Source: Clostridia bacterium
GTDB lineage: Bacteria; Bacillota; Clostridia; RGIG8785
NCBI GenBank assembly: GCA_045655245.1
Contig: JAZOOX010000014.1
Span: forward strand, 5,056 to 69,055
Length of the DNA stretch: 64,000 nt
Direction of reading: 5' to 3'
The notes below the pieces were generated by a model that made no database searches, was not told the DNA's origin, and worked only from the letters and a program-made list of their open reading frames with translations. Each line of letters begins with the position of its first letter. Positions within the stretch are counted from its first letter, which is position 1. This document shows, one piece after another, positions 2,999-64,000 of the stretch. Position numbers and translations under genes: made by a program.

Positions 2999-3027
2999 TT
3001 GACAAATGGTCAGGAAATACATATAAT
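2999..3027 (+). promoter_or_regulatory. sigma-A type promoter of cysK
   Basis: TTGACA (2999-3004), 17-bp spacer, TATAAT (3022-3027): perfect consensus. Confidence 0.8.
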
Positions 3028-3062
3028 TGAAAAAGGCTACAATTTATAAACGAGGTAATTAT

Positions 3063-6969: not shown

Positions 6970-6998
6970 TTGACGACGGAAGAAGAATATGGTACAAT
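6970..6998 (+). promoter_or_regulatory. sigma-A type promoter for sRNA candidate 1
   Basis: TTGACG (6970-6975), 17-bp spacer, TACAAT (6993-6998). Confidence 0.65.
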
Positions 6999-7004
6999 AG
7001 TAAT

Positions 7005-7160
7005 TGCCAAACCAACTGAATAAAACGTAGTAAAAAGTAAGGAAAATAACAGTGAAAAAACGCTGGCTTGTTTCCTTAGTTTTGCTACGGTTAGGTTGGT
7101 TTGGCGATTGACCTGAGCCTGCGTTTTTCGGTGCGCGGCTTTGGTCGCGCACTTTTTTAT
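7005..7160 (+). ncRNA. candidate structured small RNA 1 (long imperfect hairpin plus intrinsic terminator)
   Basis: Nested helices GCCAAACCAAC/GTTGGTTTGGC, CGTAGTAAAA/TTTTGCTACG and TAAGGAAA/TTTCCTTA; ends in the terminator GTGCGCGGCTTTGGTCGCGCAC plus T6; no ORF. Confidence 0.45.
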
Positions 7161-7188
7161 TGACGAAAAAGTGCAACTGTGGTAAAAT
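7160..7188 (+). promoter_or_regulatory. sigma-A type promoter for sRNA candidate 2 / leader
   Basis: TTGACG (7160-7165), 17-bp spacer, TAAAAT (7183-7188). Confidence 0.65.
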
Positions 7189-7194
7189 ATTTTT

Positions 7195-7369
7195 GCGACA
7201 TGAATTTAATAGAGAGTTCGAGTTCAACCTATGGGAGACGTTTACCTTTTGGTAAAAACGTGTCCTCTACTTGAGCGTCCTCCTTAGGGTGAACTCTCTC
7301 TGAATTCGTGTCGCAACGATCAGAGTGACGCGTTTTTCGGTGCGTGGCTTTGGTCGCGCACTTTTTTAT
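7195..7369 (+). ncRNA. candidate structured small RNA 2 or cis-regulatory leader (multi-stem, same terminator as RNA 1)
   Basis: Closing helix GCGACATGAATT/AATTCGTGTCGC, inner helix AGAGAGTTC/GAACTCTCT, further hairpins; terminator GTGCGTGGCTTTGGTCGCGCAC plus T6 directly upstream of the RBS of a 45-aa ORF. Confidence 0.45.
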
Positions 7370-7385
7370 TGGGGGAGGGAGAAAA

Positions 7386-7523
7386 ATGGCAGACTACAAA
7401 AAGTTATACTATCAGTTATTCAACCGTATTACCGACCTGATTGAAGAATTGAAAAAATTTCAGATCGACGCAGAAGAGCAGTTTATGAGCGAAGAGGACG
7501 ACGAGGAAGAGGAAGCCGAATAG
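7386..7523 (+). CDS. hypothetical 45-aa acidic protein (below ORF-track cutoff)
   Basis: RBS GGGGGAGGGAG 5 nt before ATG 7386; MADYKKLYYQLFNRITDLIEELKKFQIDAEEQFMSEEDDEEEEAE; poly-acidic C-terminus. Confidence 0.35.
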   Translation: MADYKKLYYQLFNRITDLIEELKKFQIDAEEQFMSEEDDEEEEAE

Positions 7524-10323: not shown

Positions 10324-10353
10324 AAAAAAAGCACCCTTGCGGGTGCTTTTTTT
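10324..10353 (+). terminator. rho-independent terminator after putP-like gene
   Basis: AAAAAAAGCACCCTTGCGGGTGCTTTTTTT, bidirectional-looking. Confidence 0.85.
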
Positions 10354-33307: not shown

Positions 33308-34158
33308 GTTGGAGCGTTTCGCTCCTGAAGGCAGTAAACCGCCTTTTCCCCTTGCCGCAACATCCTTTTAATCTGCAAAACGACGGGGTCAAGACCTATG
33401 CCGAATGGCAGTTTGAAAAGGGTCGCGACACCGTCGCTTTTTATTTGGAATATGCGACGTTGGCAGAACTGTTTTCAGGTAAGCAGGTGTTGGACATCGG
33501 TTGCGGTGCGGCGGGCAAGACCCTTTTTTATGCCAGCTGCGGCGTAGACCACATCACGGGAATGGACATTGTTCCTTACTATGAGGACGAGGCCAATGCT
33601 CTGGCTGAAAAGCTGGGCTACGCCGACCGGTTTACTTTTGTGTTGGGAGATGCCGCCCAGACCCCTTTTACCGATAACTCCTTTGACACGATTATCATGA
33701 ACGATGCCATGGAGCACGTGGACAAGCCTGAAGAAGTCTTAAAAGAGTGTCTGCGCATTCTTCGTCCCAAGGGCCGTATCTATATCAATTTTCCGCCTTA
33801 CGACCACCCTTACGGAGCCCACCTGAGCGATGCCATCGGGATGCCCTGGGTCCATCGGTTTTTTACCGAAAAAACCTTAATCGCAGGGTACAAAGACCTG
33901 GTTCGCCATCTGCCCGACGGCGAGAGCCGCATCGACTTCCGCATTTCCAAACGGGAGAACGGAGAGGAATATTTTTCTTATATTAATCATATGAGTATCC
34001 GCCGATTTCGGGGCATACTAAACCGACTGGACCTGACTCCCGCTTATTTGCGGGAAGTACCGTTGCGGGGGTTTTTAACGCCCTTGGCAAAACTCCCCTT
34101 ACTCAAGGAGTGCTTCGTCAAAATGGTAGTCTGTGTGATTGAAAAGGAGGACATATGA
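33304..34158 (+). CDS. class I SAM-dependent methyltransferase
   Basis: Motif I VLDIGCGAAGKT; ATGA overlap with the Asp23 stop; the listed ORF (33151) starts inside the previous gene. Confidence 0.7.
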   Translation: MSWSVSLLKAVNRLFPLPQHPFNLQNDGVKTYAEWQFEKGRDTVAFYLEYATLAELFSGKQVLDIGCGAAGKTLFYASCGVDHITGMDIVPYYEDEANALAEKLGYADRFTFVLGDAAQTPFTDNSFDTIIMNDAMEHVDKPEEVLKECLRILRPKGRIYINFPPYDHPYGAHLSDAIGMPWVHRFFTEKTLIAGYKDLVRHLPDGESRIDFRISKRENGEEYFSYINHMSIRRFRGILNRLDLTPAYLREVPLRGFLTPLAKLPLLKECFVKMVVCVIEKEDI

Positions 34159-35948
34159 ATATCAGCCAAAACATTCGCTACATCGGCGTAAACGACTATA
34201 AAACCGACCTGTTCGAAGGTCAGTACAAGGTTCCTGACGGAATCTCGTACAATTCTTATCTGATTTTGGACGACAAGATTGCGGTCATGGACACGGTAGA
34301 CACCCGCTTTTCCCACGAGTGGCTGGACGCTCTCCAGCGGGAATTGGGCGGTCGTACCCCCGATTATCTGGTTATTCAGCATATGGAGCCTGACCATTCG
34401 GGGAGCATTGGCAAGTTCTTGGACACCTACCCTAATGCCACTGTGGTTTCCTCGGACAAATCTTTTGGGATGATGCAAAAGTTCTTTGGTCGACCCAAGG
34501 GCGAGGAGCAGCGTCTGACCGTTGCCGAGGGGGACACCCTTTCTTTGGGCGCACACACCCTGCATTTTGTTGCTGCACCCATGGTCCACTGGCCCGAGGT
34601 TATGGTCACTTACGAATCCTCTGAAAAGGTGCTCTTTTCCGCTGACGGGTTCGGCAAGTTTGGTACCCCCGAGCGGGGCGGTGAATGGGCAGACGAGGCG
34701 CGACGCTATTACATCGGTATCGTAGGAAAGTATGGTCCGCAGGTTCAGGCGTTGTTGAAAAAAGCCGCAGGATTGGATATTGAAACAATTTGCCCTCTGC
34801 ATGGGCCTGTGCTGAAAGCACCTCTGGCCGAGTATCTGCGGTTGTATCAGGCTTGGTCGTCCTACACTCCCGAAGAAGAGGGGATTATGATTGCCTATAC
34901 CTCGGTCTATGGGAACACCCGCAACGCCGTACAAAAACTGGCGGAAAAACTCAAAGCACTGAACTGCCCCCGTGTAGAGGTCTGTGACCTGGCACGTACC
35001 GACATCGACCAGGCGGTGGCAAACGCCTTCCGATTCAGTAAACTGGTTTTGGCGACCACCACTTATAATGCGGGACTATTCCCCTATATGCGCCGCTTTG
35101 TGGAATATCTCACCGAGCGAAACTTCCAAAACCGCACTGTGGGTCTGATTGAAAACGGAAGCTGGGCACCCCGTGCTAACAAACTGCTGCACGAGGCGCT
35201 GGATAGCTGCAAAAACATCACCTGGCTGGCGGACGAGCTTACCATCCACGCGGCAATGACCGACGCCGACGGCGAGACCTTGCAAAGAATGGCGGAAGAA
35301 CTTTGTCAGGACTATCTGGCACAAAACGGCGAGACCGCTGATAAGCAGGACAAGACCGCCCTCTTTAAACTGGGCTACGGGTTGTACGTGGTTACCTGCC
35401 GGGACGGCGAGAAGGACAACGGGCTTATCGTCAACACTGTGACCCAGGTCACCGACACCCCTCAACGGGTAGCGGTCACCATCAATAAAGAAAACTACTC
35501 CCACCATATTATCCAAAAGACGGGGAAGATGAACATTAACTGTCTCACCGAGGAAGCACCTTTCTCGGTCTTCGAAAACTTTGGATTTAAGAGCGGTCGT
35601 TCGACAGATAAGTTTGCCGACATCGACGCCCTACGCTCGGACAATGAGCTTACCTTCTTGTCCCGTTATATCAATGCCATGCTCTCGTTAGAAGTAGAGG
35701 AGTATGTGGATTTGGGCACCCACGGCATGTTCGTTTGCGCCGTCACCGAATCCCGCGTAATGAGTGACAAACCCAGTATGACCTACGCTTATTATCACGA
35801 AAACGTTAAGCCGAAGCCTCAAACCGACGGCAAAAAAGGATACGTCTGCCGCATCTGCGGATACGTCTACGAGGGTGATCCGTTGCCCGAGGACTTCATC
35901 TGTCCTCTTTGCAAACACGGCGTAGCGGATTTTGAGCCGATTGAATAG
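34155..35948 (+). CDS. flavodiiron protein (metallo-beta-lactamase + flavodoxin + flavin-reductase-like + C-terminal rubredoxin fusion)
   Basis: HxExDH diiron motif (..HMEPDHSG..), flavodoxin-like region, C-terminal rubredoxin CRICGYVYEGD..CPLC. Confidence 0.8.
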   Translation: MNISQNIRYIGVNDYKTDLFEGQYKVPDGISYNSYLILDDKIAVMDTVDTRFSHEWLDALQRELGGRTPDYLVIQHMEPDHSGSIGKFLDTYPNATVVSSDKSFGMMQKFFGRPKGEEQRLTVAEGDTLSLGAHTLHFVAAPMVHWPEVMVTYESSEKVLFSADGFGKFGTPERGGEWADEARRYYIGIVGKYGPQVQALLKKAAGLDIETICPLHGPVLKAPLAEYLRLYQAWSSYTPEEEGIMIAYTSVYGNTRNAVQKLAEKLKALNCPRVEVCDLARTDIDQAVANAFRFSKLVLATTTYNAGLFPYMRRFVEYLTERNFQNRTVGLIENGSWAPRANKLLHEALDSCKNITWLADELTIHAAMTDADGETLQRMAEELCQDYLAQNGETADKQDKTALFKLGYGLYVVTCRDGEKDNGLIVNTVTQVTDTPQRVAVTINKENYSHHIIQKTGKMNINCLTEEAPFSVFENFGFKSGRSTDKFADIDALRSDNELTFLSRYINAMLSLEVEEYVDLGTHGMFVCAVTESRVMSDKPSMTYAYYHENVKPKPQTDGKKGYVCRICGYVYEGDPLPEDFICPLCKHGVADFEPIE

Positions 35949-35966: not shown

Positions 35967-35996
35967 AAAGGACTTGGATTTCTCCAAGTCCTTTTT
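35967..35996. repeat. hairpin repeat copy A (AAAGGACTTGG-N-CCAAGTCCTTTTT), inverted orientation
   Basis: 11-bp stem; four copies in the window (also 38011, 40846, 55563); copy A has its loop flipped relative to the others. Confidence 0.85.
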
Positions 35997-36002
35997 GTTA
36001 TA

Positions 36003-36040
36003 AAAAAGAAGACCAATAATGACCAAAAGGATTGTGGTAT
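36003..36040 (+). promoter_or_regulatory. conserved 38-bp box (AAAAAGAnGACCAATAATGACCAAAAGnAnTGTGGTA), copy 1, promoter-like
   Basis: Nearly identical to 55603-55637 upstream of the phage small terminase; contains -35/-10-like hexamers. Confidence 0.5.
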
Positions 36041-36106
36041 GCTTTCTTTGTAAAAGGTTGTTGCTTTACAAACGACCGAGTTTATGATAGTATTAGGAGG
36101 AAATGA

Positions 36107-36763
36107 ATGAACGAAGAAAGAACCGCAGACGTTTTTCGCTCGTACTTGGTTGAAAATGCGGAATATGCAGGACAGGCAGAACTTCCGATCATCAAAACCA
36201 GCGATGAACTTCCGCAAAAACTTGTCCCGTTTTCCAAAGCGGTGACCAGAGGTCGCAAAGACTTCGACAGTTGGATTTGCTTTTATGAGCATGATGACCG
36301 ATTTGAACGGTTGTGGAAAGACCCCAAGCGCTACTTGCCGATTATCAAAAAATTTAAAGGGGTTATTTCACCCGACTTCAGTCTCTACCGCAATATGCCG
36401 ATTTGTATGCAATTGTGGAATACTTACCGTGGTAGAGCACTCGCCAATTGGCTTCAAAAAAACGGCGTAGAGGTTATCCCTAACGTCCGTTTTGGGGACG
36501 AACGCTCTTATTCTTTTTGCTTTGACGGGATTGAATCACAAAAAACGATTGCCGTTGGTACCCACGGATGCATTAAACACAAAACAGACCGCCTCTTTTT
36601 CCAAGTGGGCTTGGATGTTGCTGTCCGTAGACTGAACCCCAAAAACATAATCGTTTACGGACGGGCCCCTGACCGCGTATTTAAGCCCTACCGTGACCGA
36701 GGTATCCACGTTATCGCCTTCGAAAGCGAGTTCGCAGCATCTCGAAAGAAGGTGCGGGAATAA
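36107..36763 (+). CDS. hypothetical protein (phage-associated; possibly DUF4417-like, from memory)
   Basis: 218 aa; ..WICFYEHDDRFERLWKDPKRYLPIIKKFKGVISPDFSLYRNMP..; RBS AGGAGGAAATGA; preceded by the same box as the phage terminase gene. Confidence 0.5.
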   Translation: MNEERTADVFRSYLVENAEYAGQAELPIIKTSDELPQKLVPFSKAVTRGRKDFDSWICFYEHDDRFERLWKDPKRYLPIIKKFKGVISPDFSLYRNMPICMQLWNTYRGRALANWLQKNGVEVIPNVRFGDERSYSFCFDGIESQKTIAVGTHGCIKHKTDRLFFQVGLDVAVRRLNPKNIIVYGRAPDRVFKPYRDRGIHVIAFESEFAASRKKVRE

Positions 36764-37359
36764 TGGGTGGCGGAGCAGGCGGAAATTTTGGAAAAACCCA
36801 GGGGAGCGCATTGGATGCAATCAGTAACCTATTAGTAGCGGCATCTTTGATTCCGGGAGTGGATAGTGTTACCAACGTCATCTCGATTCCCGTTGACATC
36901 CTTCGGGGAGATTGGCTTTCGGTAGGACTGGATGTGCTGGGAGTCTTGCCCGTTGTCGGCGAAGCAGGAGATGCTATGAAACTGGCAAAACTTTCCGACA
37001 AGGCTTCGGATGCTACGAAGGTAGTAAAAAGAGCTACAAAAAGTGTGTCCGATAATGCGAGAAACGTTGCCAAACGATATTCTCTTAGTAAAAATGGTTA
37101 TTTCGGAACGAAAGGAAAAAACACACGAGTTTTCAAAAGCAGTGATCCTTTGAAAGAGTCTGCTGACTTTTATAAAAAGATCAGTAGGGGTGGCGTAGAA
37201 CGGGTTTTGCCTAATGGAAAAGGTGTTCAAACGGTTTTTCCTGATAATTCAAGCGTTGTTTATCGAGTGATTACCAAGACGCTTGATAGTCCTGCGGTTG
37301 AAATAATAGTAAAAACTGCAGGGCAAATAAAGTCACAAAAGATTCATTTTATAAAATAA
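36763..37359 (+). CDS. hypothetical Gly-rich N-terminus protein, possible truncated polymorphic-toxin C-terminal module
   Basis: ATGG overlap with the upstream stop; segment ..GLDVLGVLPVVGEAGDAMKL.. recalls a pre-toxin TG-type linker, then a basic about 90-aa C-terminal domain; no N-terminal secretion domain. Confidence 0.35.
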   Translation: MGGGAGGNFGKTQGSALDAISNLLVAASLIPGVDSVTNVISIPVDILRGDWLSVGLDVLGVLPVVGEAGDAMKLAKLSDKASDATKVVKRATKSVSDNARNVAKRYSLSKNGYFGTKGKNTRVFKSSDPLKESADFYKKISRGGVERVLPNGKGVQTVFPDNSSVVYRVITKTLDSPAVEIIVKTAGQIKSQKIHFIK

Positions 37360-37373
37360 GGAAGTGAGAACAA

Positions 37374-37916
37374 GTGATATTTGTTACTTTAAACGATCAA
37401 ATGGAAAAATTGCTCAGAAGCATTAAAGGAGCCGAAACGGTTTCGTATGAATGCGAGAAAACTTTTAATAATGTTTATGGCAAACTGAGAATCCATACCG
37501 AAAAAGGGTCTGTCGAAGTGACCAATTTTCATCAAACGAGAGACGTTTTAGGGGCTCAGGAAGATGTGTCCGGATTTCAATGCAAAAAGGTGAAAAAAGG
37601 GGATTGTTTTAAATCCTTGTGCGGGGACGTTGCTGAAACGTTTCGGATGAAGGGGCTTGTTACGGAAATCAAAATTATAAATGATGCCATTTCAGTGAAC
37701 GACGGAACATATGAAATCTCTTTCGATCAAGCGATTGTTATAAAAACAGAGGACGAAACAGTAATGTTTTCGCGCGATGCGTGGTTTTCGGAGGATATAA
37801 CAGTTTCCGAGCACGATGATTATGATTTGCTTGTTCCAGTGTCTCGGGTTGCTGAACTGTGGTCATTTGATGGGGATAATAAAGTAAAGATCACCAGAAC
37901 AAGCCGACAGTTATAG
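37374..37916 (+). CDS. hypothetical protein, candidate immunity partner
   Basis: GTG start after RBS AGGAAGTGAG; acidic 180-aa cytoplasmic protein immediately downstream of the toxin-like ORF. Confidence 0.3.
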   Translation: MIFVTLNDQMEKLLRSIKGAETVSYECEKTFNNVYGKLRIHTEKGSVEVTNFHQTRDVLGAQEDVSGFQCKKVKKGDCFKSLCGDVAETFRMKGLVTEIKIINDAISVNDGTYEISFDQAIVIKTEDETVMFSRDAWFSEDITVSEHDDYDLLVPVSRVAELWSFDGDNKVKITRTSRQL

Positions 37917-38010
37917 AAATGAGCGATGGTTTTTTGGGTATTATCATTTGGACAAAGCAATTGATGAAAAACATATCGCCGTATTTGACGAGATCATTAA
38001 ACTTTAAACG

Positions 38011-38038
38011 AAAAGGACTTGGAGAAATCCAAGTCCTT
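38011..38038. repeat. hairpin repeat copy C
   Basis: AAAAGGACTTGGAGAAATCCAAGTCCTT; inverted relative to copy A, so the 36.0-38.0 kb cassette is bracketed by inverted copies. Confidence 0.85.
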
Positions 38039-38123
38039 CTTTGTTTTGGTTTAAAAATCATGGCGATCATCTACCGAGAGTCTGTTCTCGGAAAACAAGC
38101 GAAGCAACTCCTTATTGCAATAT

Positions 38124-38138
38124 GGGGATTATATCCCC
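38124..38138. promoter_or_regulatory. perfect palindrome GGGGAT-TAT-ATCCCC upstream of the XRE gene (candidate operator)
   Basis: 6-bp arms, 3-bp spacer, about 65 bp upstream of the XRE RBS. Confidence 0.45.
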
Positions 38139-38228
38139 TTAATAATTGAGATTATAACCCCCCATAATAGTACTTGCCAAGATGAAGGGGGAAATAGAAC
38201 GATTCGGTTTGACAAGTTGTGGGAGACA

Positions 38229-38399
38229 ATGGAGCAAAAGGGTGTCAGTACCTATCAGTTGAGGGAAAAGTGTGGCATCGACAGCAAGACCATTCGGCGG
38301 TTAAAAGCCAACGAGAATGTTGAGACAAAGACTTTGGACAAGCTTTGCGCCGCACTGGACTGTGTGCTGAGCGACATTGCTGAATATATTGCAGAATAA
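38229..38399 (+). CDS. XRE-family helix-turn-helix transcriptional regulator (start uncertain)
   Basis: HTH_3-like ..GVSTYQLREKCGIDSKTIRRLKANENV..; strong RBS GAAGGGGGAAA at 38184-38194 points to initiation near 38202 (in-frame ATT) rather than ATG 38229. Confidence 0.6.
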   Translation: MEQKGVSTYQLREKCGIDSKTIRRLKANENVETKTLDKLCAALDCVLSDIAEYIAE

Positions 38400-38419: not shown

Positions 38420-38450
38420 AAAAAAGTCAGCCGAGGGGCTGACTTTTTTA
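38420..38450. terminator. bidirectional terminator between the XRE gene and rsmE
   Basis: AAAAAAGTCAGCCGAGGGGCTGACTTTTTT. Confidence 0.85.
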
Positions 38451-40794: not shown

Positions 40795-40825
40795 AAAAAG
40801 CACCCGAAAGGGTGCTTTTTTTGAA
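40795..40825 (+). terminator. rho-independent terminator after tsf
   Basis: AAAAAGCACCCGAAAGGGTGCTTTTTTT. Confidence 0.9.
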
Positions 40826-40845
40826 GTAATAATGAAGAGGTAAGA

Positions 40846-40875
40846 AAAGGACTTGGGAAACCAAGTCCTTTTTCA
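40846..40875. repeat. hairpin repeat copy D
   Basis: AAAAGGACTTGGGAAACCAAGTCCTTTTTC. Confidence 0.8.
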
Positions 40876-40876
40876 T

Positions 40877-40900
40877 TTGGTTAACAAAAGTTAACCAAAA
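40877..40900. repeat. 24-bp perfect palindrome, copy 3 (TTTGGTTAAC-AAAA-GTTAACCAAA)
   Basis: Identical to copy 2 at 2918-2941. Confidence 0.85.
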
Positions 40901-55548: not shown

Positions 55549-55562
55549 GAAAGTAGTTCCGA

Positions 55563-55592
55563 AAAGGACTTGGAGAAATCCAAGTCCTTTTT
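55563..55592. repeat. hairpin repeat copy B
   Basis: AAAAGGACTTGGAGAAATCCAAGTCCTTTTTT at the host/phage-module junction. Confidence 0.85.
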
Positions 55593-55602
55593 TATTTTTC
55601 CA

Positions 55603-55637
55603 AAAAGATGACCAATAATGACCAAAAGAAGTGTGGT
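55603..55637 (+). promoter_or_regulatory. conserved box, copy 2 (promoter-like; -10 TATAAT at 55632-55637)
   Basis: GATGACCAATAATGACCAAAAGAAGTGTGGTAGTATAAT; near-identical to 36003-36040. Confidence 0.5.
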
Positions 55638-55664
55638 AGTATAATTTCGAAAGGAGGAATACGG

Positions 55665-55847
55665 ATGGCAAAACGAAAACAGGCAAGTAGTGCCGTTGCC
55701 TTTTGGGAGCGATTGTTAAACGACCCGGAGGCAGATATCAAGGACCGCTTAAAGGCGTCGGAGTTCCTGGCAAAAGCCCACAAGACTTTTGCCGAAGAGC
55801 CGCTGACCGACCGTGAGCTGAACGTGACGATCCGTGTGGTTGAATAA
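55665..55847 (+). CDS. phage terminase small-subunit-like protein
   Basis: 60 aa; RBS AAGGAGG before ATG 55665; TAATG overlap with the large-terminase start; position and size fit a small terminase, sequence alone is weak. Confidence 0.4.
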   Translation: MAKRKQASSAVAFWERLLNDPEADIKDRLKASEFLAKAHKTFAEEPLTDRELNVTIRVVE

Positions 55848-57214
55848 TGGATTTAAACCTTACCGTCACCCAAAAGCAAAAGTCCTTTCTGGATGCCACT
55901 GCTGACGAAGTGTTATACGGCGGGGCGGCAGGGGGCGGGAAGAGTTACGGACAGGTAGTGGATGCCTTGGTTTATGCCCTGCGCTACAAGGGCATCCGTC
56001 AGCTGGTGCTTCGCCGCACCTTTCCCGAACTGAAGCGGAGTTTGATTTTAACCTCTCTTGCCCTTTTTCCAAAAGGAGTCTGTCAGTACCAAAGCGCAAA
56101 CCATCGGTTTGTCTTTCAAAACGGCTCGGTCATCGAGTTTGGTTATTGTGACACGGAAGGGGATGTGACCCAGTACCAATCGGCGGAGTACGATGTTTTA
56201 CGATTTGACGAGCTGACCCACTTCACCGAGTTTCAGTACCGTTACTTAATCTCCCGTATTCGTGGCGTCAACGGCCATCCCAAACAGGTCAAGGCCACTA
56301 CCAATCCGGGGGGCATCGGGCACAGTTGGGTGAAAGAACGGTTTATCGGTCACGACGGGGAGTGGACGGCAGAGGATGGACGCACGCGAGTATTTATCCC
56401 TGCCACCGTGCGGGACAACTGTTTTTTAATGTCGTCAGACAGTGGCTACCTCGCCCGTCTGGAACAGTTGCCCGAGCAGGAAAAACGTGCCTTGCTTTAC
56501 GGGGACTGGGACTTGTACGAGGGACAAGCCTTTGGGGAGTTTCGCAACAACCCCGACGGGTATCTCTCCCGCCGCGGCAGTCACGTCATCACCCCTTTCG
56601 AGATTCCGGAACACTGGCGGCGATTCCGCAGTTTTGACTTCGGCTATGCCAAGCCTTTTGCGGTTCAATGGTGGGCGGTAGATGAGGACGGACGTGCTTA
56701 TCTTTACCGACAACTGTACGGGTCCACGGGGAAACCCAACGAGGGGAGGCGGTGGACGGTCAGTCAAATCGGTCAGGCCATTGCCCGTATCGAAGCGGAA
56801 GAAGAACGGGGACGAAATATCACGGGGATTGCCGATCCCAGTATCTGGGACACCTCCCGTGGGGAGTCGGTTGCCGAGATGCTGGAGCGGGAGGGGGTTT
56901 ACTTCGACCCCGGGGACAACGCCCGTCTGGCAGGGAAGATGCAGCTGCACTACCGACTTCAGTTTGATGAAGGGGGCTTGCCGATGCTTTATGTCTTTTC
57001 TACCTGTCGGGACTTTATCCGCACATTGCCCGGGCTGATTTATGACCGACACCGCTCCGAGGACATCGACACCAACGGCGAAGACCACGACTATGATGCC
57101 TGCCGCTACTTTTTAATGGCAAATCCCATTGGAGCAAAACGTCCACAGCCCCGCGGGCATTTCGAGACCGACCCCCTCGACCGAAAAGTATGGGTCATTG
57201 ATTTACCAAAGTAA
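55847..57214 (+). CDS. phage terminase large subunit (PBSX/XtmB-like)
   Basis: Walker A ..YGGAAGGGKSY.., about 450-aa compact terminase with C-terminal nuclease region. Confidence 0.9.
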   Translation: MDLNLTVTQKQKSFLDATADEVLYGGAAGGGKSYGQVVDALVYALRYKGIRQLVLRRTFPELKRSLILTSLALFPKGVCQYQSANHRFVFQNGSVIEFGYCDTEGDVTQYQSAEYDVLRFDELTHFTEFQYRYLISRIRGVNGHPKQVKATTNPGGIGHSWVKERFIGHDGEWTAEDGRTRVFIPATVRDNCFLMSSDSGYLARLEQLPEQEKRALLYGDWDLYEGQAFGEFRNNPDGYLSRRGSHVITPFEIPEHWRRFRSFDFGYAKPFAVQWWAVDEDGRAYLYRQLYGSTGKPNEGRRWTVSQIGQAIARIEAEEERGRNITGIADPSIWDTSRGESVAEMLEREGVYFDPGDNARLAGKMQLHYRLQFDEGGLPMLYVFSTCRDFIRTLPGLIYDRHRSEDIDTNGEDHDYDACRYFLMANPIGAKRPQPRGHFETDPLDRKVWVIDLPK

Positions 57215-57233
57215 TGAAGATAGGAGAAGAAAA

Positions 57234-58757
57234 ATGGAAGAATTTTTCAGAGAAGTGCAACGGGCGTTTAATACTTACGTTGCCGAAAAAGCCGCCATTG
57301 ACAGTGAACTGGTAGATGGTGAGGAATGGTTTAATGATCGTTGTTTTGACGGCGGTCGGGAAGCGGATGGGAGTGTTCGCGGTGCAGGCGGATATGTGTA
57401 TAACATTGTTGCCAACAAGCATGCCGATGCCATGGACCAGATGCCCGCGCCCCTCTTTTTGCCCCGTGAGCAAGAGGACACGATTGCGGCTGAGGAAGCC
57501 TCGCAGGTGTTACCGGTAGTACTGGCACGATGCGGGTTTGAACGCACTTATTCCGACGGCTGGTGGAACAAGCTAAAGCATGGCACTGCCGCCTATGGAG
57601 TTTTTTGGGACAATGCTAAATCGGATATCTGCATTCGTGAGGTGGACCTGCTTAACATCTTTTGGGAACCTGCAGTAGAGGACATCCAGGACAGCCGATT
57701 TTTGTTTATCACTCGTGTGCTGAGCCGTCAGCAGATGGGGGAACTGTACCCCCAACTGTCGCCTGCCGACTATGCCGCTCCCATCAACCTGCGGAGCTAC
57801 GAGCATCGCTTTGACCCCGAACGGGTTTTGGTGGTGGATTGCTACTACAAAGACCGCGGAGTACATCTTTTAAAGTTCTGCGGGGACAAAATCCTGTACC
57901 ACTCTAAAGAGGACAAGCGGTTAAATCGCCGCGGCCTCTATCATCACGGACAGTATCCCATCGTCTTTGACCGCCTGATTGCCAAGCGGGGGACACCTCA
58001 GGGTGCAGGGTTTATCTCTCTTTCCCGCGGGGCGCAGGAGTACATTGATCGCCTGGACAGTTTGCTGCTTCAGAACGCCTTGGTGTCGGGACGGCAACGC
58101 TGGTTTATCAAAGACAACGGCGGCGTGAACGAACAGGAGTTTTTAAACTTTGAAAATGATTTGATTCATGTTGCGGGAAGTCTGGAAGAAACGCACATCC
58201 GTCCCTTCCAGGCAACGGCACTGCCCTCCTATGTGCAGTATTTGCGGGAACACAAGATTTCCGAATTGAAGGAGATTTGCGGCAACCGCGACTTCCAGCA
58301 GGGCGCTACCGCCCAGGGGGTTACTGCTTATTCTGCCATTGCCGCCTTACAGGAAGCGGGGAACAAGCTCAGTCGGGATATGATTGCCGAGAGCTATGAT
58401 GCGTTCCGACAGATCATGCGGCTCTGCCTTTCTTTGGTGGTCCAGTTTTATGACGAGGCGCGGGTTTTCCGTGTAACGGGGGACCAATTCCTAAGCTTTT
58501 CTGCCAAGTCACTGGTACGGGACGGAAAGGAAGTGGAACTGGACATTGAAGTACAGGCACAGAAGCAGAACCCCGTTACCCGCGAAGGACAAAACCAATT
58601 GCTGATGGAACTCTATCGGCTGGGGGTATTCCGCCCCGAGAATGCAACGGCCGCTAAAGTACTGGTCTCCCAGATGGACTTTAACGGGCGTGAGGGTCTG
58701 CTTTCGGCGCTGATTCGTGCCGAGCAGGGCTACCGCAACGAGGAGGCACAGGCATGA
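57234..58757 (+). CDS. phage portal protein
   Basis: About 507 aa directly after the terminase; RBS AGGAGAAG before ATG 57234; size and position fit a portal. Confidence 0.75.
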   Translation: MEEFFREVQRAFNTYVAEKAAIDSELVDGEEWFNDRCFDGGREADGSVRGAGGYVYNIVANKHADAMDQMPAPLFLPREQEDTIAAEEASQVLPVVLARCGFERTYSDGWWNKLKHGTAAYGVFWDNAKSDICIREVDLLNIFWEPAVEDIQDSRFLFITRVLSRQQMGELYPQLSPADYAAPINLRSYEHRFDPERVLVVDCYYKDRGVHLLKFCGDKILYHSKEDKRLNRRGLYHHGQYPIVFDRLIAKRGTPQGAGFISLSRGAQEYIDRLDSLLLQNALVSGRQRWFIKDNGGVNEQEFLNFENDLIHVAGSLEETHIRPFQATALPSYVQYLREHKISELKEICGNRDFQQGATAQGVTAYSAIAALQEAGNKLSRDMIAESYDAFRQIMRLCLSLVVQFYDEARVFRVTGDQFLSFSAKSLVRDGKEVELDIEVQAQKQNPVTREGQNQLLMELYRLGVFRPENATAAKVLVSQMDFNGREGLLSALIRAEQGYRNEEAQA

Positions 58758-59335
58758 GTGAACTTTCTTTGGGCGCAAGAACTGCGGAACCCGCCCACCC
58801 GCAAGACGGTGCAAATACCGAAAGTCCGTCCGCCGTCCGGACCCCGATTCTGGCGTTTTATTCCCAGGACGAAGTCGACCGTTTTATGGGAAAACGTTTG
58901 GGAGAGAGTCGGAAAATCAAAGAGGCGTACGAGCAACTTCAGCCGATGCTGGTACACCTGCGCAAAGAGTATGGCTGTGATAACGACCGGGATTTGGTCG
59001 GGCAGGTGTTAGGTCAGGCGGAAGCAGGCGGCTTACGCTATGGAATCGGCGCCACCACCCCTGCCGACTGGGCGGCGTTGTTACAGGAGCACCCCGATAT
59101 TGACCCTGTTGAGGTCACCGACGACCCGAAAGTCCGTCGGGCAATGCGAGCGGGGTTTAGCCTGTCCGAAGCTGTACGGATTGCCAAACTGTTAAACGAC
59201 GGCGCTGCCCGCCCTGACGAAAACGGGGCGGCACGGCATCGCAGCAGGATTCGGCTGGATATTGAGCGGATGACCGACGCCCAGTTAAACGAAGTGGCAC
59301 GTCGGGTCAGACGCGGAGAACTTGTTCAATTTTAG
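58754..59335 (+). CDS. hypothetical phage protein (scaffold/head-morphogenesis position)
   Basis: ATGA overlap with the portal stop; lies between portal and capsid. Confidence 0.35.
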   Translation: MSELSLGARTAEPAHPQDGANTESPSAVRTPILAFYSQDEVDRFMGKRLGESRKIKEAYEQLQPMLVHLRKEYGCDNDRDLVGQVLGQAEAGGLRYGIGATTPADWAALLQEHPDIDPVEVTDDPKVRRAMRAGFSLSEAVRIAKLLNDGAARPDENGAARHRSRIRLDIERMTDAQLNEVARRVRRGELVQF

Positions 59336-59348
59336 GAGGAATTAAGTT

Positions 59349-60506
59349 ATGAGTAATGTAAACGAAAACATTCAAAGCACCGCCACCTTAAGTGCGGAAA
59401 ACAAAACCTATTACGACAAACGATTGATTCAGTTTGCCAAGCCCAATCTGGTCCACGACCAGTTCGGTCAAAAGCGACCTATCCCTAAAAATGGCGGCAA
59501 AACCATTGAGTTCCGCAGTTTCTCGTCCCTGCCCAAGGCGTTGGTACCCCTGACCGAGGGCGTTACCCCCGATGGCGAAAGTCTGACCGTGGAGCAGATT
59601 TCTGCATCGGTCAACCAGTACGGCTCGTACGTTACCACCACCGATATGCTGAATATGACCGCCATTGACAACATTGTGGTTGAGACTTCCGAGGTCTTAG
59701 GTGACCAGGCGGGAAGAACCTTGGATACTGTTGTTCGCGAATACTTAAACGCCGGTTCTTCGGTTCAGTATGCCGACGGCGAAAAGGATTCCCGTTCCCA
59801 GCTGACTGCCGCTGATACCCTGTCGGTGAAGGCGGTCCAGCGTGCCGTTGCAACCTTAAAAAAGAACAATGCCAAACCTTTTGCCGACGGGTCTTTTGTT
59901 GCCATTGTCCATCCCGCCGTTGCTCATGACCTGATGCGCGACCCCGAATGGAAGGACGTTGCCAATTACAACCCTGCGGAATGGTATGCGGGTGAAATTG
60001 GCCGCATCGCAGGTGTTCGCTTTGTTGAAACCACCGAAGCCAAAATTTTCGAAGCGGAGGATCTGGCAGGATTTGATGACTTGACGATTACGGCAGTAGA
60101 TGCCCAAAATCGCAAGGTTACCATCGCTGAAGAAGTGGATGCATCGGTCATCGGCCGTGAAATCGTCATTAACGGTCTGGACTACACGATCGCAGCTGTT
60201 GACGGTTTTACCCTGACCTTGTCCGAGGTCCTGCCCGCATCGGTTGCCGCTAACGATAAGGTTTACCCCGCCGGCGGCACCTCGGACGGCAGTCCTGTTT
60301 ATTCTACTTTGATTTTGGGTCGTGATGCTTATGGTGTTACCGAGATTACCGGCGGCGGTCTGGAAATGATTGTAAAGCCTTTGGGCTCCGGCGGTACGGG
60401 CGACCCCTTAAACCAACGTTCCACCATGGGCTGGAAAGCAACCAAGGTGGCTAAAATTCTGACCGAAGAGTATATGATTCGCGTGGAGACTACTGCAGCA
60501 TTATAA
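59349..60506 (+). CDS. phage major capsid protein
   Basis: 385 aa, RBS AGGAGG; capsid-like composition and position after the scaffold. Confidence 0.65.
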   Translation: MSNVNENIQSTATLSAENKTYYDKRLIQFAKPNLVHDQFGQKRPIPKNGGKTIEFRSFSSLPKALVPLTEGVTPDGESLTVEQISASVNQYGSYVTTTDMLNMTAIDNIVVETSEVLGDQAGRTLDTVVREYLNAGSSVQYADGEKDSRSQLTAADTLSVKAVQRAVATLKKNNAKPFADGSFVAIVHPAVAHDLMRDPEWKDVANYNPAEWYAGEIGRIAGVRFVETTEAKIFEAEDLAGFDDLTITAVDAQNRKVTIAEEVDASVIGREIVINGLDYTIAAVDGFTLTLSEVLPASVAANDKVYPAGGTSDGSPVYSTLILGRDAYGVTEITGGGLEMIVKPLGSGGTGDPLNQRSTMGWKATKVAKILTEEYMIRVETTAAL

Positions 60507-60554
60507 GAAAGTGGGGGCGGGATACCGCCCCCTGGCACAAAAGGAGGAATTACA

Positions 60555-60884
60555 ATGGCAGAAAAGAAAATTACTGTCAGTTTGACCGCCGAGGAACTGA
60601 TGGCGTTAAAGCAACTGGTCCATAACCCTGAAACTCGCGCGGTTTCGCCCGTTAAGGAACCGGCTGATGCGGTTCGTGCTTACTATGACGAGCCGGTGGA
60701 GATCTATCTGCATCCTTACGGCACCCGCGAATACCTGACCGTAGTGGTCAACGGCGTGACCTATCAGGTGCGCCGCGGGGTCAGTGTCACTGTTCCCCGT
60801 CGTGTAGCACGGGTTATTCGTCAGGCAGAGGAAAATTATCGTCGTGCGCTGGTCTTTGATCGCCGCATGATCGCGCAAGGGTAG
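60555..60884 (+). CDS. hypothetical phage protein (109 aa)
   Basis: RBS AAAGGAGG; head-completion position. Confidence 0.4.
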   Translation: MAEKKITVSLTAEELMALKQLVHNPETRAVSPVKEPADAVRAYYDEPVEIYLHPYGTREYLTVVVNGVTYQVRRGVSVTVPRRVARVIRQAEENYRRALVFDRRMIAQG

Positions 60885-60893
60885 GTGATAAAA

Positions 60894-61934
60894 ATGCAAA
60901 ATTTTTGGTGGAATCGCAAGTTCTATCATGGAAGACCCGAGCCGGACAGTTACAGACTGTCTCGCTTGGAAGAAACCAGCTCGACAACCGCCGAAACCCT
61001 GTCTGCTCTGTCAAAGGCGCAGACTGCGACAGACGCTTTAAACGATGCCCAGGGCAAACTTCTGGGGGAACACACTGCCCTGCTATCCCATCTGACTGAC
61101 ATCGCCGCCTCCACGCAAGAGGATGTGGAGCAGGTTGTGGCAGAATGTGACAGCATCAGTAACGAACTTACTGCCCTGGAGCAGAACGACAATGTGCTGT
61201 CTGCTCGTATCGATGGCATCGAAGAAGCCTGCGCTGATACTTCGGCAGAGCAAGCCACACGGTTGAACCAACTGGAGTCTGCTACTGCTGAATTCCCGAA
61301 AAAACTTACTGTACTGGAAAACAAACTCACGTCTACAAGAGGTGAGGGGATGGGGTACCTCCCCTTTCAAGGTTACGGTTGCACCTGCAATCTATTGGGT
61401 TCGTATCCCGCCGGAGGAGTTACGTTGTTCAGCGAATCATACGATGCAGCCAACCTATATCTGTCACCAATAAATGAGACACAGCTGATAATCCCCCCAG
61501 GGAGTGGGGTCCTTTTCGGATCGATGGATGGTATCAAATTTTCTGATGGAGAATTTGAAGTGATTAACCTTTCCCAGATGCCGATGCTGAAGAAAATAGG
61601 TTTTTGTGACTTTGTGTTTCACGGTCTTGTCATGCCCTCAAAACCTATCTTGTACGAGGTGGTGTTAGAGAGAACTAACGGCGTTACAGTAGATTTACAA
61701 AATCAAACCCAGCTGTTCAACCTGACCATGGTAAATTGTCATGCAAATGTGCGCTTACCCGATACTCTTCCGAACCTGGAATATGTGGTATTGGATAGTA
61801 ATAAAGCGCAGGATGAAGATTTTTTGAAAAAATATCTCTTCGACCGTAGTCAAACTAGCCCCGGACGGGTGTCACTGTCGGGCGCAACGCCTCCCGACTG
61901 GCTGGCAGAACGGAACTGGACGGTGATAGGGTGA
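60894..61934 (+). CDS. hypothetical phage protein: N-terminal coiled coil + C-terminal Leu-rich repeat-like region
   Basis: Heptad-rich N-terminal half (..ALSKAQTATDALNDAQGKLLGEHTALLSHL..), C-terminal LRR-like segment; ATG 60894 after RBS AGGGTAGGTG. Confidence 0.45.
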   Translation: MQNFWWNRKFYHGRPEPDSYRLSRLEETSSTTAETLSALSKAQTATDALNDAQGKLLGEHTALLSHLTDIAASTQEDVEQVVAECDSISNELTALEQNDNVLSARIDGIEEACADTSAEQATRLNQLESATAEFPKKLTVLENKLTSTRGEGMGYLPFQGYGCTCNLLGSYPAGGVTLFSESYDAANLYLSPINETQLIIPPGSGVLFGSMDGIKFSDGEFEVINLSQMPMLKKIGFCDFVFHGLVMPSKPILYEVVLERTNGVTVDLQNQTQLFNLTMVNCHANVRLPDTLPNLEYVVLDSNKAQDEDFLKKYLFDRSQTSPGRVSLSGATPPDWLAERNWTVIG

Positions 61935-62662
61935 ACGTTTTTGCTTTAAAGATTATCCATGATGCCGATGCCCGCATTCCTAACGCCCTCCCTACGGCAA
62001 AGAAACTGGACTGGCTCAACCGCCTGGAAGCCCGTATTCGTTTGGAAATCAAGCGCATCTATGACGAGTACACCCTTACGGTTACCGAGGATAAACCCTA
62101 CCTGCTCCCCGTGTCGGAAGAGCAAATAGAATGGGTGTTTTATAACGGCAACCCCATCCCGAAAATCGACCTTCGTTCTGCCGAAGGGTTGCGGGCGGGG
62201 GAGTACCGATTCGTTTGCCGTAGCCTGCCCGAGCCTCTGACCGATCGAGTGGTGACCGATGAAAACGCCACTTTTTCGGCGGACAGCATCACCTTCTCCG
62301 AGTACCATCCTTTTGTGAAAGGCGATTTTATTGGCATTTCGGAAACGCCAGACAACAATGTTACCGCCACGGTAACCGAAATTGATGGTGTGACCGTCAA
62401 AACGGATTACACCGCCTTTGTTGCAGGGGAAATGCCCGCTACCGTATGCAGTATCAACGACCGTCCCATGGAGATCCCCACTCAGCACCCTTGCTTTGGG
62501 ATATACGAGGAGTATCTGTGTATGGAACTCGCCCGTCACCTGGCGGATACCGAGCGTTTCCGTCTGGCAGAGAGCGCCTTTGCTGCCTTATGGGAGGAGT
62601 ACGCCCGACTCTACCGCCAGACTGCCCCCCAAACCCCCGGGGCAAAAGTAAGGGGGATCTGA
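61931..62662 (+). CDS. hypothetical phage protein (243 aa)
   Basis: GTG start overlapping the upstream stop (GTGA). Confidence 0.4.
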   Translation: MNVFALKIIHDADARIPNALPTAKKLDWLNRLEARIRLEIKRIYDEYTLTVTEDKPYLLPVSEEQIEWVFYNGNPIPKIDLRSAEGLRAGEYRFVCRSLPEPLTDRVVTDENATFSADSITFSEYHPFVKGDFIGISETPDNNVTATVTEIDGVTVKTDYTAFVAGEMPATVCSINDRPMEIPTQHPCFGIYEEYLCMELARHLADTERFRLAESAFAALWEEYARLYRQTAPQTPGAKVRGI

Positions 62663-64000
62663 TATGGCAGAAACCTTACTGGACATCAAAACCTTCGGCG
62701 GGCTGAACTTTAGTCCCAATGCCGAAGCGGGGGAGTGTGCCATTGCCCTCAACCTGGACGATGCCAATGCCCCCGCCTTGCGTACCGCATACGGATTTAC
62801 CGATGAGACGGTAACCGAAACGGGTACTTTTCAGGGTCATCTCATCGAACAGGGCAAAACGGTGATGTCGGTCTTTGACGATACGTTGTATATGGGTCAA
62901 ATGCAATTTCCGTTAGAGCCTTTGGGTGTGCCTCGCAGATTTCTGCGTATCACGCCCAAGGACGTTTTAATCTTCCCCGATTGCTACCGCTACTCCTATT
63001 CCCACGTCGAGTGCGCCCCCTTGGACGAACGCTTTACCTCCGAAGGGACGGCTACTCACGATGACGGCAAAGTGCGGGTGAAATTGACCACCCGCCCGCT
63101 CAGCTCCATCCGTGGTCGGGTCTACCTGGATGATGCGGGGTATACCTATTACGACCCCGAAACCGCCCCGGGTGAATCTCTTTTGTACTTCGAGGTGGAG
63201 AGTTACGACCACGACGGAAGCGGTTGTGCGTTAGTGTTAAAACCTGTCACCAACGGAACCGGCATGTATTCTTATTCGTCGGATAAAGTCAAAGACCGAC
63301 TCACCCTCCGTCAGGTCTATCCCCGCATGGACCATGTAATGATCTTCCGCAACCGGCTCTGGTGCGTGGGCGGAATGGTCCTTACCGCATCAAAACTGGG
63401 TGACTACTTAAACTTCACCGATTTTTCGGGTCTTTCCACCGATAGCTTTTCGATGGAAGTGGAAGAACCCCTAAACGCAATCTCCCACTTTGGAGAACGG
63501 GTGGTCTTTATGAGCAAAACCCACCTCTACGAACTCTACGGCGACCGTCCTTCCAACTATCAGGTCTCAGCTCCGAAATCGGGCGGTTGTACCTACCCCG
63601 ACTCTGTATGTACTGCAGGGGGTTACCTCATCTATGCCGACGATCGCAACCTCTATCGTTATGGTGGCGGGGACCCCCAGGTTACCACCGAACGGCTGGA
63701 TTTCCCCCAATGGACTTCGGTGTTCGGCGTTTCGGACGGCGAATCCTGTTATCTTGGCATCGACGGCCACCTCTATCGCTACCGTCCCAAACGCAATACC
63801 TTTTATGCCCTCGACCGCACCGCCACCCTGGGCATCACCCAACAAAGCACCTGTTTCTTCTATAATAATAAGGGATACTTCTGTCCCAACCGCGAACGGA
63901 CGGGTGAGGTGCACTTCCGTTCGGGTTGGCTCTGCCTGGACAAGCGGGGTCGCGTCGCACCGAAAGAGATTCTGCTCCGTATTGACGGTGCGGTAGACGA
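62663..64000 (+). CDS. hypothetical phage structural protein (partial, 3' end outside window)
   Basis: Open frame from ATG 62663 (MAETLLDIKTFGGLNFSPN..) to the window end (over 445 codons) with no stop; absent from the ORF track, presumably because it is incomplete. Confidence 0.5.

Follow-up and report, generated by a model that had tools for sequence, protein, structure and literature searches.

In Rhodobacter capsulatus, the activator GafA acts on several dispersed loci of the gene transfer agent (GTA) RcGTA, and Caulobacter has the GafYZ system. Here, we describe a short DNA element, the box, which occurs twice in a 64,000-nt stretch of contig JAZOOX010000014.1 from a Clostridia bacterium (GTDB lineage RGIG8785; the whole stretch is called the window below): once in front of a phage-like head/packaging cluster and once in front of a cassette of a DUF4417 gene, a toxin-like gene and an immunity-like gene. 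As in the RcGTA and GafYZ systems, a domesticated cluster and unlinked loci would be placed under a common promoter-proximal regulator site, although in another phylum, with an unrelated motif and presumably with an unrelated regulator. We know of no toxin/immunity cassette in any described GTA regulon. Co-regulation of cluster and cassette through the common box is the best reading of the sequences presented here and, in our estimate, a moderately probable one. The box and the hairpins that stand beside it in the window are two separate elements.

The cluster resembles FpGTA of Faecalibacterium prausnitzii, an operon of about 10.5 kb that encodes a small terminase subunit (TerS) without a DNA-binding domain, a large terminase subunit (TerL), a portal, a scaffold-like protein and an 'N4-gp56 family' capsid (Nat Commun 2026, PMC12946183). 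The parts of FpGTA are podovirus-like, a second operon with holin and endolysin lies 125 kb away, and the 40-nm particles contain about 9 kb of host DNA (PMC12946183). GTA-like DNA packaging is reported to be common in gut Ruminococcaceae and Oscillospiraceae (PMC12946183). The word 'promoter' is absent from that paper, and the control of FpGTA is unaddressed in it (PMC12946183). Compared by description only, our cluster is like FpGTA in bacterial group (Ruminococcaceae/Oscillospiraceae), size, gene order, a protein of about 190 aa, the capsid family and podovirus-type parts, as well as in having a tiny TerS-position protein without a DNA-binding domain and more than one locus. It differs in that holin and endolysin lie inside the cluster of the relative L159, whereas FpGTA has both in its second operon, and in that FpGTA particles have been seen while the present cluster is known from genes alone. 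What is new here is the box and the set of loci marked by it; clusters of the FpGTA kind were known before.

The core of the box, GACCAATAATGACCAAAAG, was matched with up to three mismatches at only two positions of the whole window, 36011 and 55610 (0.01 expected), and the full form GACCAATAATGACCAAAAG..TGTGGTA is present in two copies, beyond chance. From AAAAAGA to TGTGGTA, the two copies (36003-36039 and 55602-55638) are equal at 34 of 37 positions; a repeat search gave 83% identity over 48 nt, and no further paired box site was found in the window. The similarity ends right after TGTGGTA. The sequence-only reading of this DNA had seen a common gTATAAT in both copies, but the aligned -10 hexamers are TATGCT at the cassette and TAGTAT at the cluster. 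The layout consists of two ATGACCAA repeats 10 bp apart, followed after 13 bp by an extended -10 element (TRTG-n-TAnnnT); the TGACCA hexamers of the repeats lie 13 and 23 bp from the -10. A canonical -35 hexamer TTGACA is absent 16-18 bp upstream of the -10, the 17-bp position being AATAAT or AAAAAT in the aligned sites. At the cluster, a TATAAT (55640-55645) overlaps the -10 hexamer and is followed by a Shine-Dalgarno (SD) sequence, GGAGG (55653-55657), and the ATG at 55665; a promoter scan match at 55618 (ATGACC-16-TATAAT) is unique to this site among the aligned boxes. At the cassette, 63 nt separate the box from the start codon of the DUF4417 gene. Every box site lies on the coding strand of the gene that follows it. 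The extended -10 of Gram-positive housekeeping promoters, with its TRTG -16 motif, is said to have been described by Voskuil and Chambliss. The box looks like a conserved promoter/operator of this extended -10, housekeeping-sigma type, with predicted promoter activity; its promoter-like character had already been recognized from the window alone. An alternative sigma factor was considered and rejected, since downstream nothing but TG-n-TAnnnT is invariant and the two repeats stand 13 and 23 bp from it.

Seven box sites were aligned: the two in the window and those on contigs L159, L161, L162, L163 and L199 of relatives. By TerL identity to the window, L159 (94%) is closer than L161 (84%) and L162 (82%). 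The Logan contigs L001 and L002, from a strain 99.5% identical to the window, show that this strain carries both hairpin-box pairs. The seven sites align without gaps from AAAGA through the -10, the sole indel (in L162) falling downstream of it, and share the invariant string AAAGA-GACCAA--ATGA-CAAAAG-A---TG-TA---T. All seven have TG-n-TA---T and six have TRTG (CGTG in L199). The box precedes the TerS-position gene at five sites (window, L001, L159, L161 and L162), with both ATGACCAA repeats present upstream of this gene in four species (window, L159, L161 and L162). In L159, L161 and L162, the conserved stretch runs from AAAGATGACCAA to the start codon of the TerS-position open reading frame (ORF), and the DNA before AAAGATGACCAA is unrelated. 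Between the window and L159 the box is identical at 36/39 positions, where neutral identity would be about 47% (Jukes-Cantor estimate at a synonymous divergence, dS, of about 0.9); with L161 and L162, 33-34/39 positions are identical at a dS of about 2 or more. The box is nearly invariant in spite of saturated synonymous sites.

The box also marks other loci. It precedes the DUF4417 gene in the window and on L002. On L163 it stands at the contig start, before the gene of a 165-aa winged-helix protein with an N-terminus of the DnaD-like/replisome-organizer type (phrog_2514, E 4e-17); then come a DUF4417 gene (product 77% identical to that in the window), the gene of a short 'MGGG' protein and further small genes, one of which encodes a homologue of the 180-aa cassette protein. 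On L199, with a flavoprotein 95% identical to that of the window, the box precedes the gene of a 241-aa replisome-organizer/DnaD-like protein (phrog_13246, E 1.9e-21; phrog_2514, E 2.8e-17), which is encoded between rpmF and an abrB-like gene; the window lacks such a gene at that place. Variants of the box go with lineage and not with the class of gene: the window and L199 share TAATGACC, and L161 and L163 share AAAATGAAC. The repeats are rigidly spaced from TG-n-TAnnnT, and at four of the five locus types the SD sequence and start codon follow about 21 nt further on. The suggestion that cluster and cassette have a common control element is strengthened by this conservation in three species and by the DUF4417 and organizer-like loci, but the hairpin, which had been counted as part of that element, does not belong to it. 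Beyond these relatives, the box had one chance match in a collection of genome contigs (in a Desulfobacteraceae metagenome-assembled genome, MAG), and neither the box nor a degenerate form of it had a match in viral contigs. Contig L202, with a DUF4417 protein of 88% identity, has 66 bp before the gene, slightly too few to reach the box; its leader is visible and conserved. TerL relatives in IMG/VR at about 50% identity belong to full phages whose upstream genes are different, and nothing comparable to the box was seen there; in one of them, L015, the extended -10 is present and the repeats are not clear.

The conserved block might instead be read as RNA or protein, with the promoter elsewhere: as an N-terminal extension or upstream ORF (MTNNDQKKC...), or as an element of the 5' untranslated region. 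The ATG of the first repeat does open a frame into the TerS-position ORF in the window (55608-55847), L159 and L161, and L159 is without the canonical ATG. However, L162 has a frame shift here, stops close the frame in L199 and at 36019 in the window, and the first ATG of L163 is out of frame. No SD sequence precedes the box ATG, and the conserved GAAAGGAGG precedes the annotated start instead. The conservation of the box shows no third-position relaxation, a search of box and leader against Rfam found no family, and the terminator T-tract 8-12 nt upstream leaves no space for another promoter. We consider a coding reading of the box unlikely, and even together with the untranslated-region variant we give it a very slight chance. 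As an observation on the same ORF, L159:9822-9824 reads AGG where the window (55665-55667), L161 and L162 have ATG, and the dN/dS of the ORF is 0.03; the AGG could stem from a faulty assembly, or the ORF may in fact start at another codon.

Activator-dependent late promoters of Firmicutes phages are exemplified by TP901-1 P-late with Alt and by phi29 A3 with p4. The box resembles them in its place before packaging genes, its lack of a -35 element and its repeats just upstream of the -10; in Lactococcus phage proPhi6, moreover, DUF4417 comes first after the late activator. It differs in that its motif is unrelated, no activator gene lies beside the window boxes, and the candidate binder is organizer/DnaD-like and not Alt-, RinA- or p4-like. 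The late activator suggested in the sequence-only reading is possible, and none was found in the window. DUF4417 precedes terS by one gene in both Streptococcus phage SA01 and proPhi6; in the latter it comes directly after the annotated activator of late transcription. Phage A25-type genomes have the same placement (PMC8066415). DUF4417 also appears, with no function given, in a recent preprint's list of phage-enriched fusion partners of the ParB-CTPase fold. Its AlphaFold model (pLDDT 82.8) pointed in a fold search to a transglycosylase-type barrel; the PHROG label 'nuclease' is not backed by this search and was rejected.

The same logic, built on another repeat, is seen in a second lineage. 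On Ruminococcaceae MAG contigs L164-L169, a terminator is followed by four ATGTCAG repeats at 10-11 bp spacing, TGATAGTAT and a DUF4417 gene. The 46-nt block of four repeats upstream of DUF4417 in L164 is identical at 44/46 positions to a block that stands, with TGTGGTAAAGT, before the portal gene of L194, and an extended -10 follows the block in both. L194 is a viral contig; its Joint Genome Institute sample also yielded L167, where the DUF4417 locus is the same as in L164. The pattern ATGTCAG-N4-ATGTCAG-N4-ATGTCA was found on 28 IMG/VR contigs (L171-L198). About half of these contigs have the repeats within replisome-organizer genes starting MAERRMFAKTIIDSDAF..., with AGGTTAGGTAAGG-type repeats after them, an arrangement suggestive of origins inside the gene; the remaining contigs include intergenic repeats in front of structural genes. 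Because these iterons lie in organizer genes, our candidate for the protein that binds the box is the organizer-like one.

This raises the possibility that the box itself is an origin. Iterons of the SPP1 G38P and lambda O type origins lie in organizer genes and are read by the N-terminal winged-helix domain of the organizer, and the GTA of Bartonella is coupled to a phage-derived run-off origin. The box could likewise be an iteron pair for a phage-type replisome organizer and thus a (run-off) replication origin amplifying the adjacent DNA. Its repeats are direct, with a 10-bp period like that of the ATGTCAG iterons (10-11 bp in organizer iterons generally), and it adjoins an organizer-like gene in L199 and L163. 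There are, however, only two repeats, against three to five in phage origins; the box lies in a promoter and not in a gene, and also at loci without a replication gene. An organizer or initiator gene is missing from the window, and L199 and L163 show this feature only in part; a conserved AT-rich unwinding element was not found. The fixed spacing to TG-n-TAnnnT and, at four of the five locus types, to SD sequence and start codon is a constraint expected of a promoter and not of an origin. We regard an origin function as improbable and retain the promoter/operator.

The hairpins form a family of their own. The pattern AAGGACTTGG-N3-8-CCAAGTCCTT matches exactly at 35968, 38013, 40847 and 55564 of the window (0.00 expected from dinucleotide-preserving shuffles), so that the previously reported four hairpin copies and two box copies are both borne out by pattern matches with about 0 expected by chance. 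Folding energies range from -19.1 to -22.0 kcal/mol (z -4.2 to -7.2), and 0/200 shuffles were as stable. Each hairpin is flanked by an A-tract on its 5' side and a T-tract on its 3' side, with four to six T after the stem. The four follow, on the same strand, the flavoprotein gene (34155-35948, whose stop lies 19 nt before copy 1), a gene remnant, tsf and the GH35 gene. They resemble intrinsic terminators in the A-tract, the perfect stem of 11-14 bp, the effective loop of 4 nt, the T-tract and the location 15-20 nt after stops or between convergent genes. Stable fold and T-tract thus uphold their earlier interpretation as terminators, at the level of prediction. Ordinary terminators drift through compensatory changes, whereas this stem is reused and invariant across species: the 2 x 11 nt of the stem are identical in 10/10 full copies from five genomes, even in orthologous copies at dS 1-3, and the loops vary (ATTTCT, AGAAAT, GAAA, GGTTT, GAATC, AAGAAAT, TTTT). 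The invariant stem with variable loops suggests gene conversion or a sequence-specific role.

That hairpin and box are separate is seen wherever one occurs without the other. Every TerS locus has one or two strong terminators with a T-tract ending 8-12 nt before the box, but these need not be of the GGACTTGG family: upstream of the box, L162 has a different terminator after a different gene (for a xylose-isomerase-like barrel), and L161 has two other terminators. L159 has kept the GGACTTGG hairpin after its GH35 gene, and from the hairpin end to its box there are about 100 bp, some 75 bp more than in the window, including a second terminator. Conversely, on L200, from the same sample as L161 and with a flavoprotein 82% identical to that of the window, the site is empty: the flavoprotein stop is followed by one hairpin (AAAAAGGACTTGGAAGAAATCCAAGTCCTTTTT, L200:4805), the end of a convergent 119-aa gene and rsmE, without a box; the orthologous single copy is at L199:5474. 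These arrangements contradict the earlier view of hairpin and box as one terminator-plus-promoter module. Since the single hairpin of L200 lies between convergent genes, it would be an ancestral bidirectional terminator, and we conclude that the family is a lineage-specific bidirectional intrinsic terminator, with termination predicted.

The same evidence bears on whether the two copies in the window are simply the footprint of a recent duplication or recombination that carried hairpin and box as one piece of about 75 bp without a function of its own. Both window boxes do stand 8-10 bp after the same hairpin, and recombination at the cassette island clearly involves this hairpin. The copy at 35967, however, has a loop (ATTTCT) that is reverse-complementary to the AGAAAT loops at 38011 and 55563, and it is thus turned round with respect to the box after it; a single copied piece does not fit a flipped hairpin with co-oriented boxes. 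In addition, the 8-10 bp spacers differ, the empty site has the ancestral hairpin but no box, and the box has been kept across species at saturated dS with unrelated DNA upstream. A mere footprint is hardly credible as an explanation of the box.

For the hairpins at the cassette, in contrast, recombination is a fitting explanation. The island of L199 consists of a hairpin, DUF7674, a metallophosphoesterase gene, half a hairpin, a 186-aa gene, a 180-aa gene, a metallophosphoesterase 3' remnant with a hairpin, an 80-aa gene, HTH_26, a hairpin and the 119-aa gene, with hairpin copies at every cassette junction and the half copy broken in its loop at L199:6612. In the window, the unit of box, DUF4417 gene and toxin gene is inserted directly after the first hairpin, and the remnant with its hairpin follows the 180-aa gene as in L199. 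On the basis of the empty site and the L199 layout, the hairpins at 35967 and 38011 would be recombination duplicates of one terminator. The recombination footprint proposed in the sequence-only reading therefore stands for the hairpins flanking the cassette island, but not as a link from the cassette to the phage-like element; its judgement that the copies are not the ends of one excisable element was correct.

It may be asked whether the hairpin is more than a terminator, namely a sequence-specific recombination site (attC-like or REP-like) for cassette insertion. The junction copies, the copy broken in the loop, the flipped loop and the identity of the stem in 10 full copies from five genomes with varying loops would all fit such a site. 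No integrase or RAYT-type gene, however, was found near any copy (window, L199 and L200); the stems pair perfectly and lack the extrahelical bases that attC has; the copies at 40846 and 55563 are away from cassette junctions; and homologous recombination between existing terminator copies explains the junctions equally well. Nor is the stem special globally, with three matches in viral contigs against one and six for composition-matched control stems. In contigs from metagenomes, at least 120 matches were found, in unrelated organisms and with unrelated loops and flanks. These distant matches are convergent terminators, uninformative on the family, which is local. We consider a dedicated recombination site rather unlikely and keep to the bidirectional terminator.

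The GGACTTGG family makes up 4 of about 13 strong terminator-like hairpins in the 64 kb. Two more terminator stems recur across loci and species, AGCACCC-loop-GGGTGCT and GTCAGCC-loop-GGCTGAC; the sites listed for the two are 10330-10353, 40799-40822 and 38426-38448 in the window, L161:1-23 and 45-72, and L159:~9697-9724. A few terminator sequences, the GGACTTGG family included, are reused at many sites in this lineage. The motif AGTGGTTAGTGA, noticed near several terminators, is not enriched in the window (5 matches vs 3.4 expected). Directly after the third hairpin stands a perfect palindrome, TTGGTTAAC-AAAA-GTTAACCAA, with three matches vs 0.03 expected: at 40877-40898, upstream of the mraZ region, and at 2873-2894 and 2919-2940 (with a weaker one at 2825-2852), so that two or three copies precede cysK (3027-3992). 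Hairpin 3 and palindrome together have a 55-nt match at L163:3428-3482, and related GGTTAA...TTAACC palindromes adjoin the hairpin in L163 (3428-3455) and the box in L199 (84-106 and 150-170). The palindrome looks like a putative operator of some regulator.

The cassette itself is of a polymorphic toxin-immunity type, as judged from its gene arrangement (Table 1). The first approximately 90 residues of the 198-aa protein are common to the proteins encoded after DUF4417 in L202, L170, L164 and L163, and the C-termini differ. In the window and relatives, the start of the toxin-like gene always overlaps the DUF4417 stop, and DUF7674 or other small genes follow. At L199:7356-7970, the last 19 codons of a gene of the 198-aa type are left as a remnant before the 180-aa gene, by sequence an orphan toxin-tip/immunity arrangement. 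Blastn matched 37921-38022 of the window to L199:6515-6618 (83%, the end of the Metallophos gene) and to L199:8132-8253. No toxin, trafficking or defence domain was found in the cassette proteins with Pfam, PHROG, PADLOC or a PDB sequence search. The pairing of DUF4417 with this family of predicted toxins is undescribed. On the NCBI MAG contig L170 (1818-6236), DUF4417, the 'MGGG' protein and DUF7674 lie between a pair of HTH_3 and ImmA/IrrE-type peptidase genes and a large serine recombinase gene; this cassette rides on a small integrative element.

The genes from 55665 onwards had been taken for a phage packaging operon, and the first of them for the terminase small subunit, which is a guess from its position. 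The cluster is complete on L159 (9795-20967), which has the same order of dcw, ypsA, typA and GH35, the last directly upstream: 13 genes in about 11.2 kb lead from the TerS-position ORF to holin and amidase, followed by a 1235-aa gene whose content is not readable. No integrase, replication or regulatory genes were found in the L159 cluster or flanking it on the sides visible. Between the window and L159, dS is 0.9-1.3 for seven flanking core genes and 0.4-1.1 for the cluster (TerL 0.92, portal 1.06, capsid 0.92), with outliers of 2.2 for the short terS and 2.4 for the divergent p349 ORF; dN/dS in the cluster is 0.03-0.16. Because its dS is like that of core genes and its dN/dS is low, the cluster seems to have diverged with the host and to have been kept by selection. 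It is too small for an autonomous tailed phage. Judged by its genes, the 'phage' is not a prophage but a domesticated, vertically inherited FpGTA-type cluster of about 11 kb, with predicted particle production. The 349-aa coiled-coil protein has 58% aa identity between the window and L159, against about 90% for its neighbours, as would be expected of a receptor-binding part. Elsewhere in the window, at 6970-7371, two tandem non-coding units with promoter-like TTGACG...TGGTACAAT (~6970) and TTGACG...TGTGGTAAAAT (~7160) share a 42-nt terminator (7121-7162 and 7330-7371; 98% identical); a 45-aa ORF follows at 7387, Rfam gave no match, and the units are candidate small RNAs.

Table 1. Coordinates of hairpins, boxes and genes in the 64-kb window
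Feature	Position	Strand	Description and evidence
Hairpin copy 1	35967..35996	+	stem AAAGGACTTGG/CCAAGTCCTTT, loop ATTTCT, T-tract; -19.1 kcal/mol, z -4.7
Box copy 1	36005..36043	+	AAAGA, degenerate repeat AAGACCAA 36009-36016, ATGACCAA 36019-36026, AAAG, TRTG 36033-36036, -10 TATGCT 36038-36043
DUF4417 gene, first of cassette	36107..36763	+	Pfam E 9e-66; stop overlaps next start
198-aa protein	36763..37359	+	conserved N-terminal MGGGAGGNFGKT...LGV.P.VGEAGD, variable C-terminus; polymorphic-toxin-like
180-aa protein, immunity-gene position	37374..37916	+	91% aa identity to L199:7428-7970, 44% to L163:2764-3306; no family match
Metallophosphoesterase 3'-end remnant before hairpin 2	37921..38010	+	blastn
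Hairpin copy 2	38011..38043	+	loop AGAAAT; -22.0 kcal/mol, z -5.8; downstream cassette junction; homologous junction hairpin L199:8171
Cro/C1-type HTH gene (HTH_26), same island	38115..38399	+	Pfam E 1.5e-16; in L199:8538-8738, not in empty site L200
Hairpin copy 3	40844..40873	+	loop GAAA; -19.5 kcal/mol; ~20 nt after the terminator of tsf itself (40795-40822); palindrome directly after
Hairpin copy 4	55562..55593	+	loop AGAAAT; -20.5 kcal/mol, z -7.2; ~14 nt after GH35 beta-galactosidase stop; orthologue L159:9654
Box copy 2	55604..55642	+	AAAGA, ATGACCAA 55608-55615, ATGACCAA 55618-55625, AAAG, TGTG 55632-55635, -10 TAGTAT 55637-55642
FpGTA-type head/packaging cluster	55665..64000, cut by window end	+	Pfam, PHROG, NCBIfam matches
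TerS-position ORF, 60 aa	55665-55847	+	no family match, no detectable domain
TerL	55847-57214	+	
P22-like portal	~57234-58757	+	
193-aa protein	58754-59335	+	
N4-gp56-family capsid	59349-60506	+	NCBIfam TIGR04387, E 7.6e-85
Genes after capsid		+	109-aa protein, 349-aa coiled-coil protein, 243-aa protein, start of ~500-aa protein

In the mechanism that we propose, the ATGACCAA repeats, one helical turn apart in the -35 position after AAAGA, would be the operator of a dedicated DNA-binding protein, acting either as an activator that replaces the -35 contact or as a repressor that occludes the promoter. The same operator would head the head/packaging/lysis cluster of about 11 kb, the operon of DUF4417, toxin-like and immunity-like genes and, in close relatives, the organizer-like gene, and the box loci would be switched together. 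The organizer-like winged-helix protein is the best candidate for the factor binding the repeats. The hairpin would be ancestral at the flavoprotein-rsmE site and would have been duplicated by recombination as cassettes inserted. It may stand beside the box because lysis and toxin units are placed behind a strong terminator and are so insulated from upstream read-through.

Several points weigh against this proposal. The evidence comes from seven sites in about five genomes, and L161/L200 and L164/L194 were each paired to the same organism only by common sample and similar divergence. No winged-helix, organizer-like, sigma-like, RinA-like or Alt-like gene was found near either box in the 64-kb window. 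At the cassette, the first repeat is degenerate (AAGACCAA), the leader is 63 nt long, and a weak conventional promoter match (TTTACA-17-TAGTAT, 36065-36093) lies within it, closer to the gene. At the TerS position, the start codon of L159 is AGG and the gene caller puts the ORF start at an ATG that falls within the predicted -10, which contradicts the promoter model on this contig unless the assembly is in error. Since the first box ATG shares the frame of the ORF at three of the four TerS loci, a coding extension would be possible from those loci alone.

Whatever its exact mode of action, the box may serve as a handle on GTA control in gut Firmicutes: as a motif for genome scans, as a probe for the regulator and as a target for reporters. 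DUF4417, a phage family of unknown function, would be assigned to the late/packaging expression class. For similar analyses, a caution follows from the hairpin, as identical terminator hairpins beside a motif do not make a mobile 'module'. A bolder version of the proposal, to which we give a slim chance, is that the box is the operator of an organizer-derived regulator with which a subpopulation turns on particles and lysis, the DUF4417 enzyme and a polymorphic toxin at once. DUF4417, with its fold like that of tRNA/DNA-guanine transglycosylases, could then modify DNA before packaging, and the toxin, which is without a secretion signal, would be freed by lysis, with kin protected by the co-encoded immunity protein. 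If true, this would be the first regulatory circuit of a Firmicutes GTA, and one in which gene transfer is coupled to bacteriocin-like killing.

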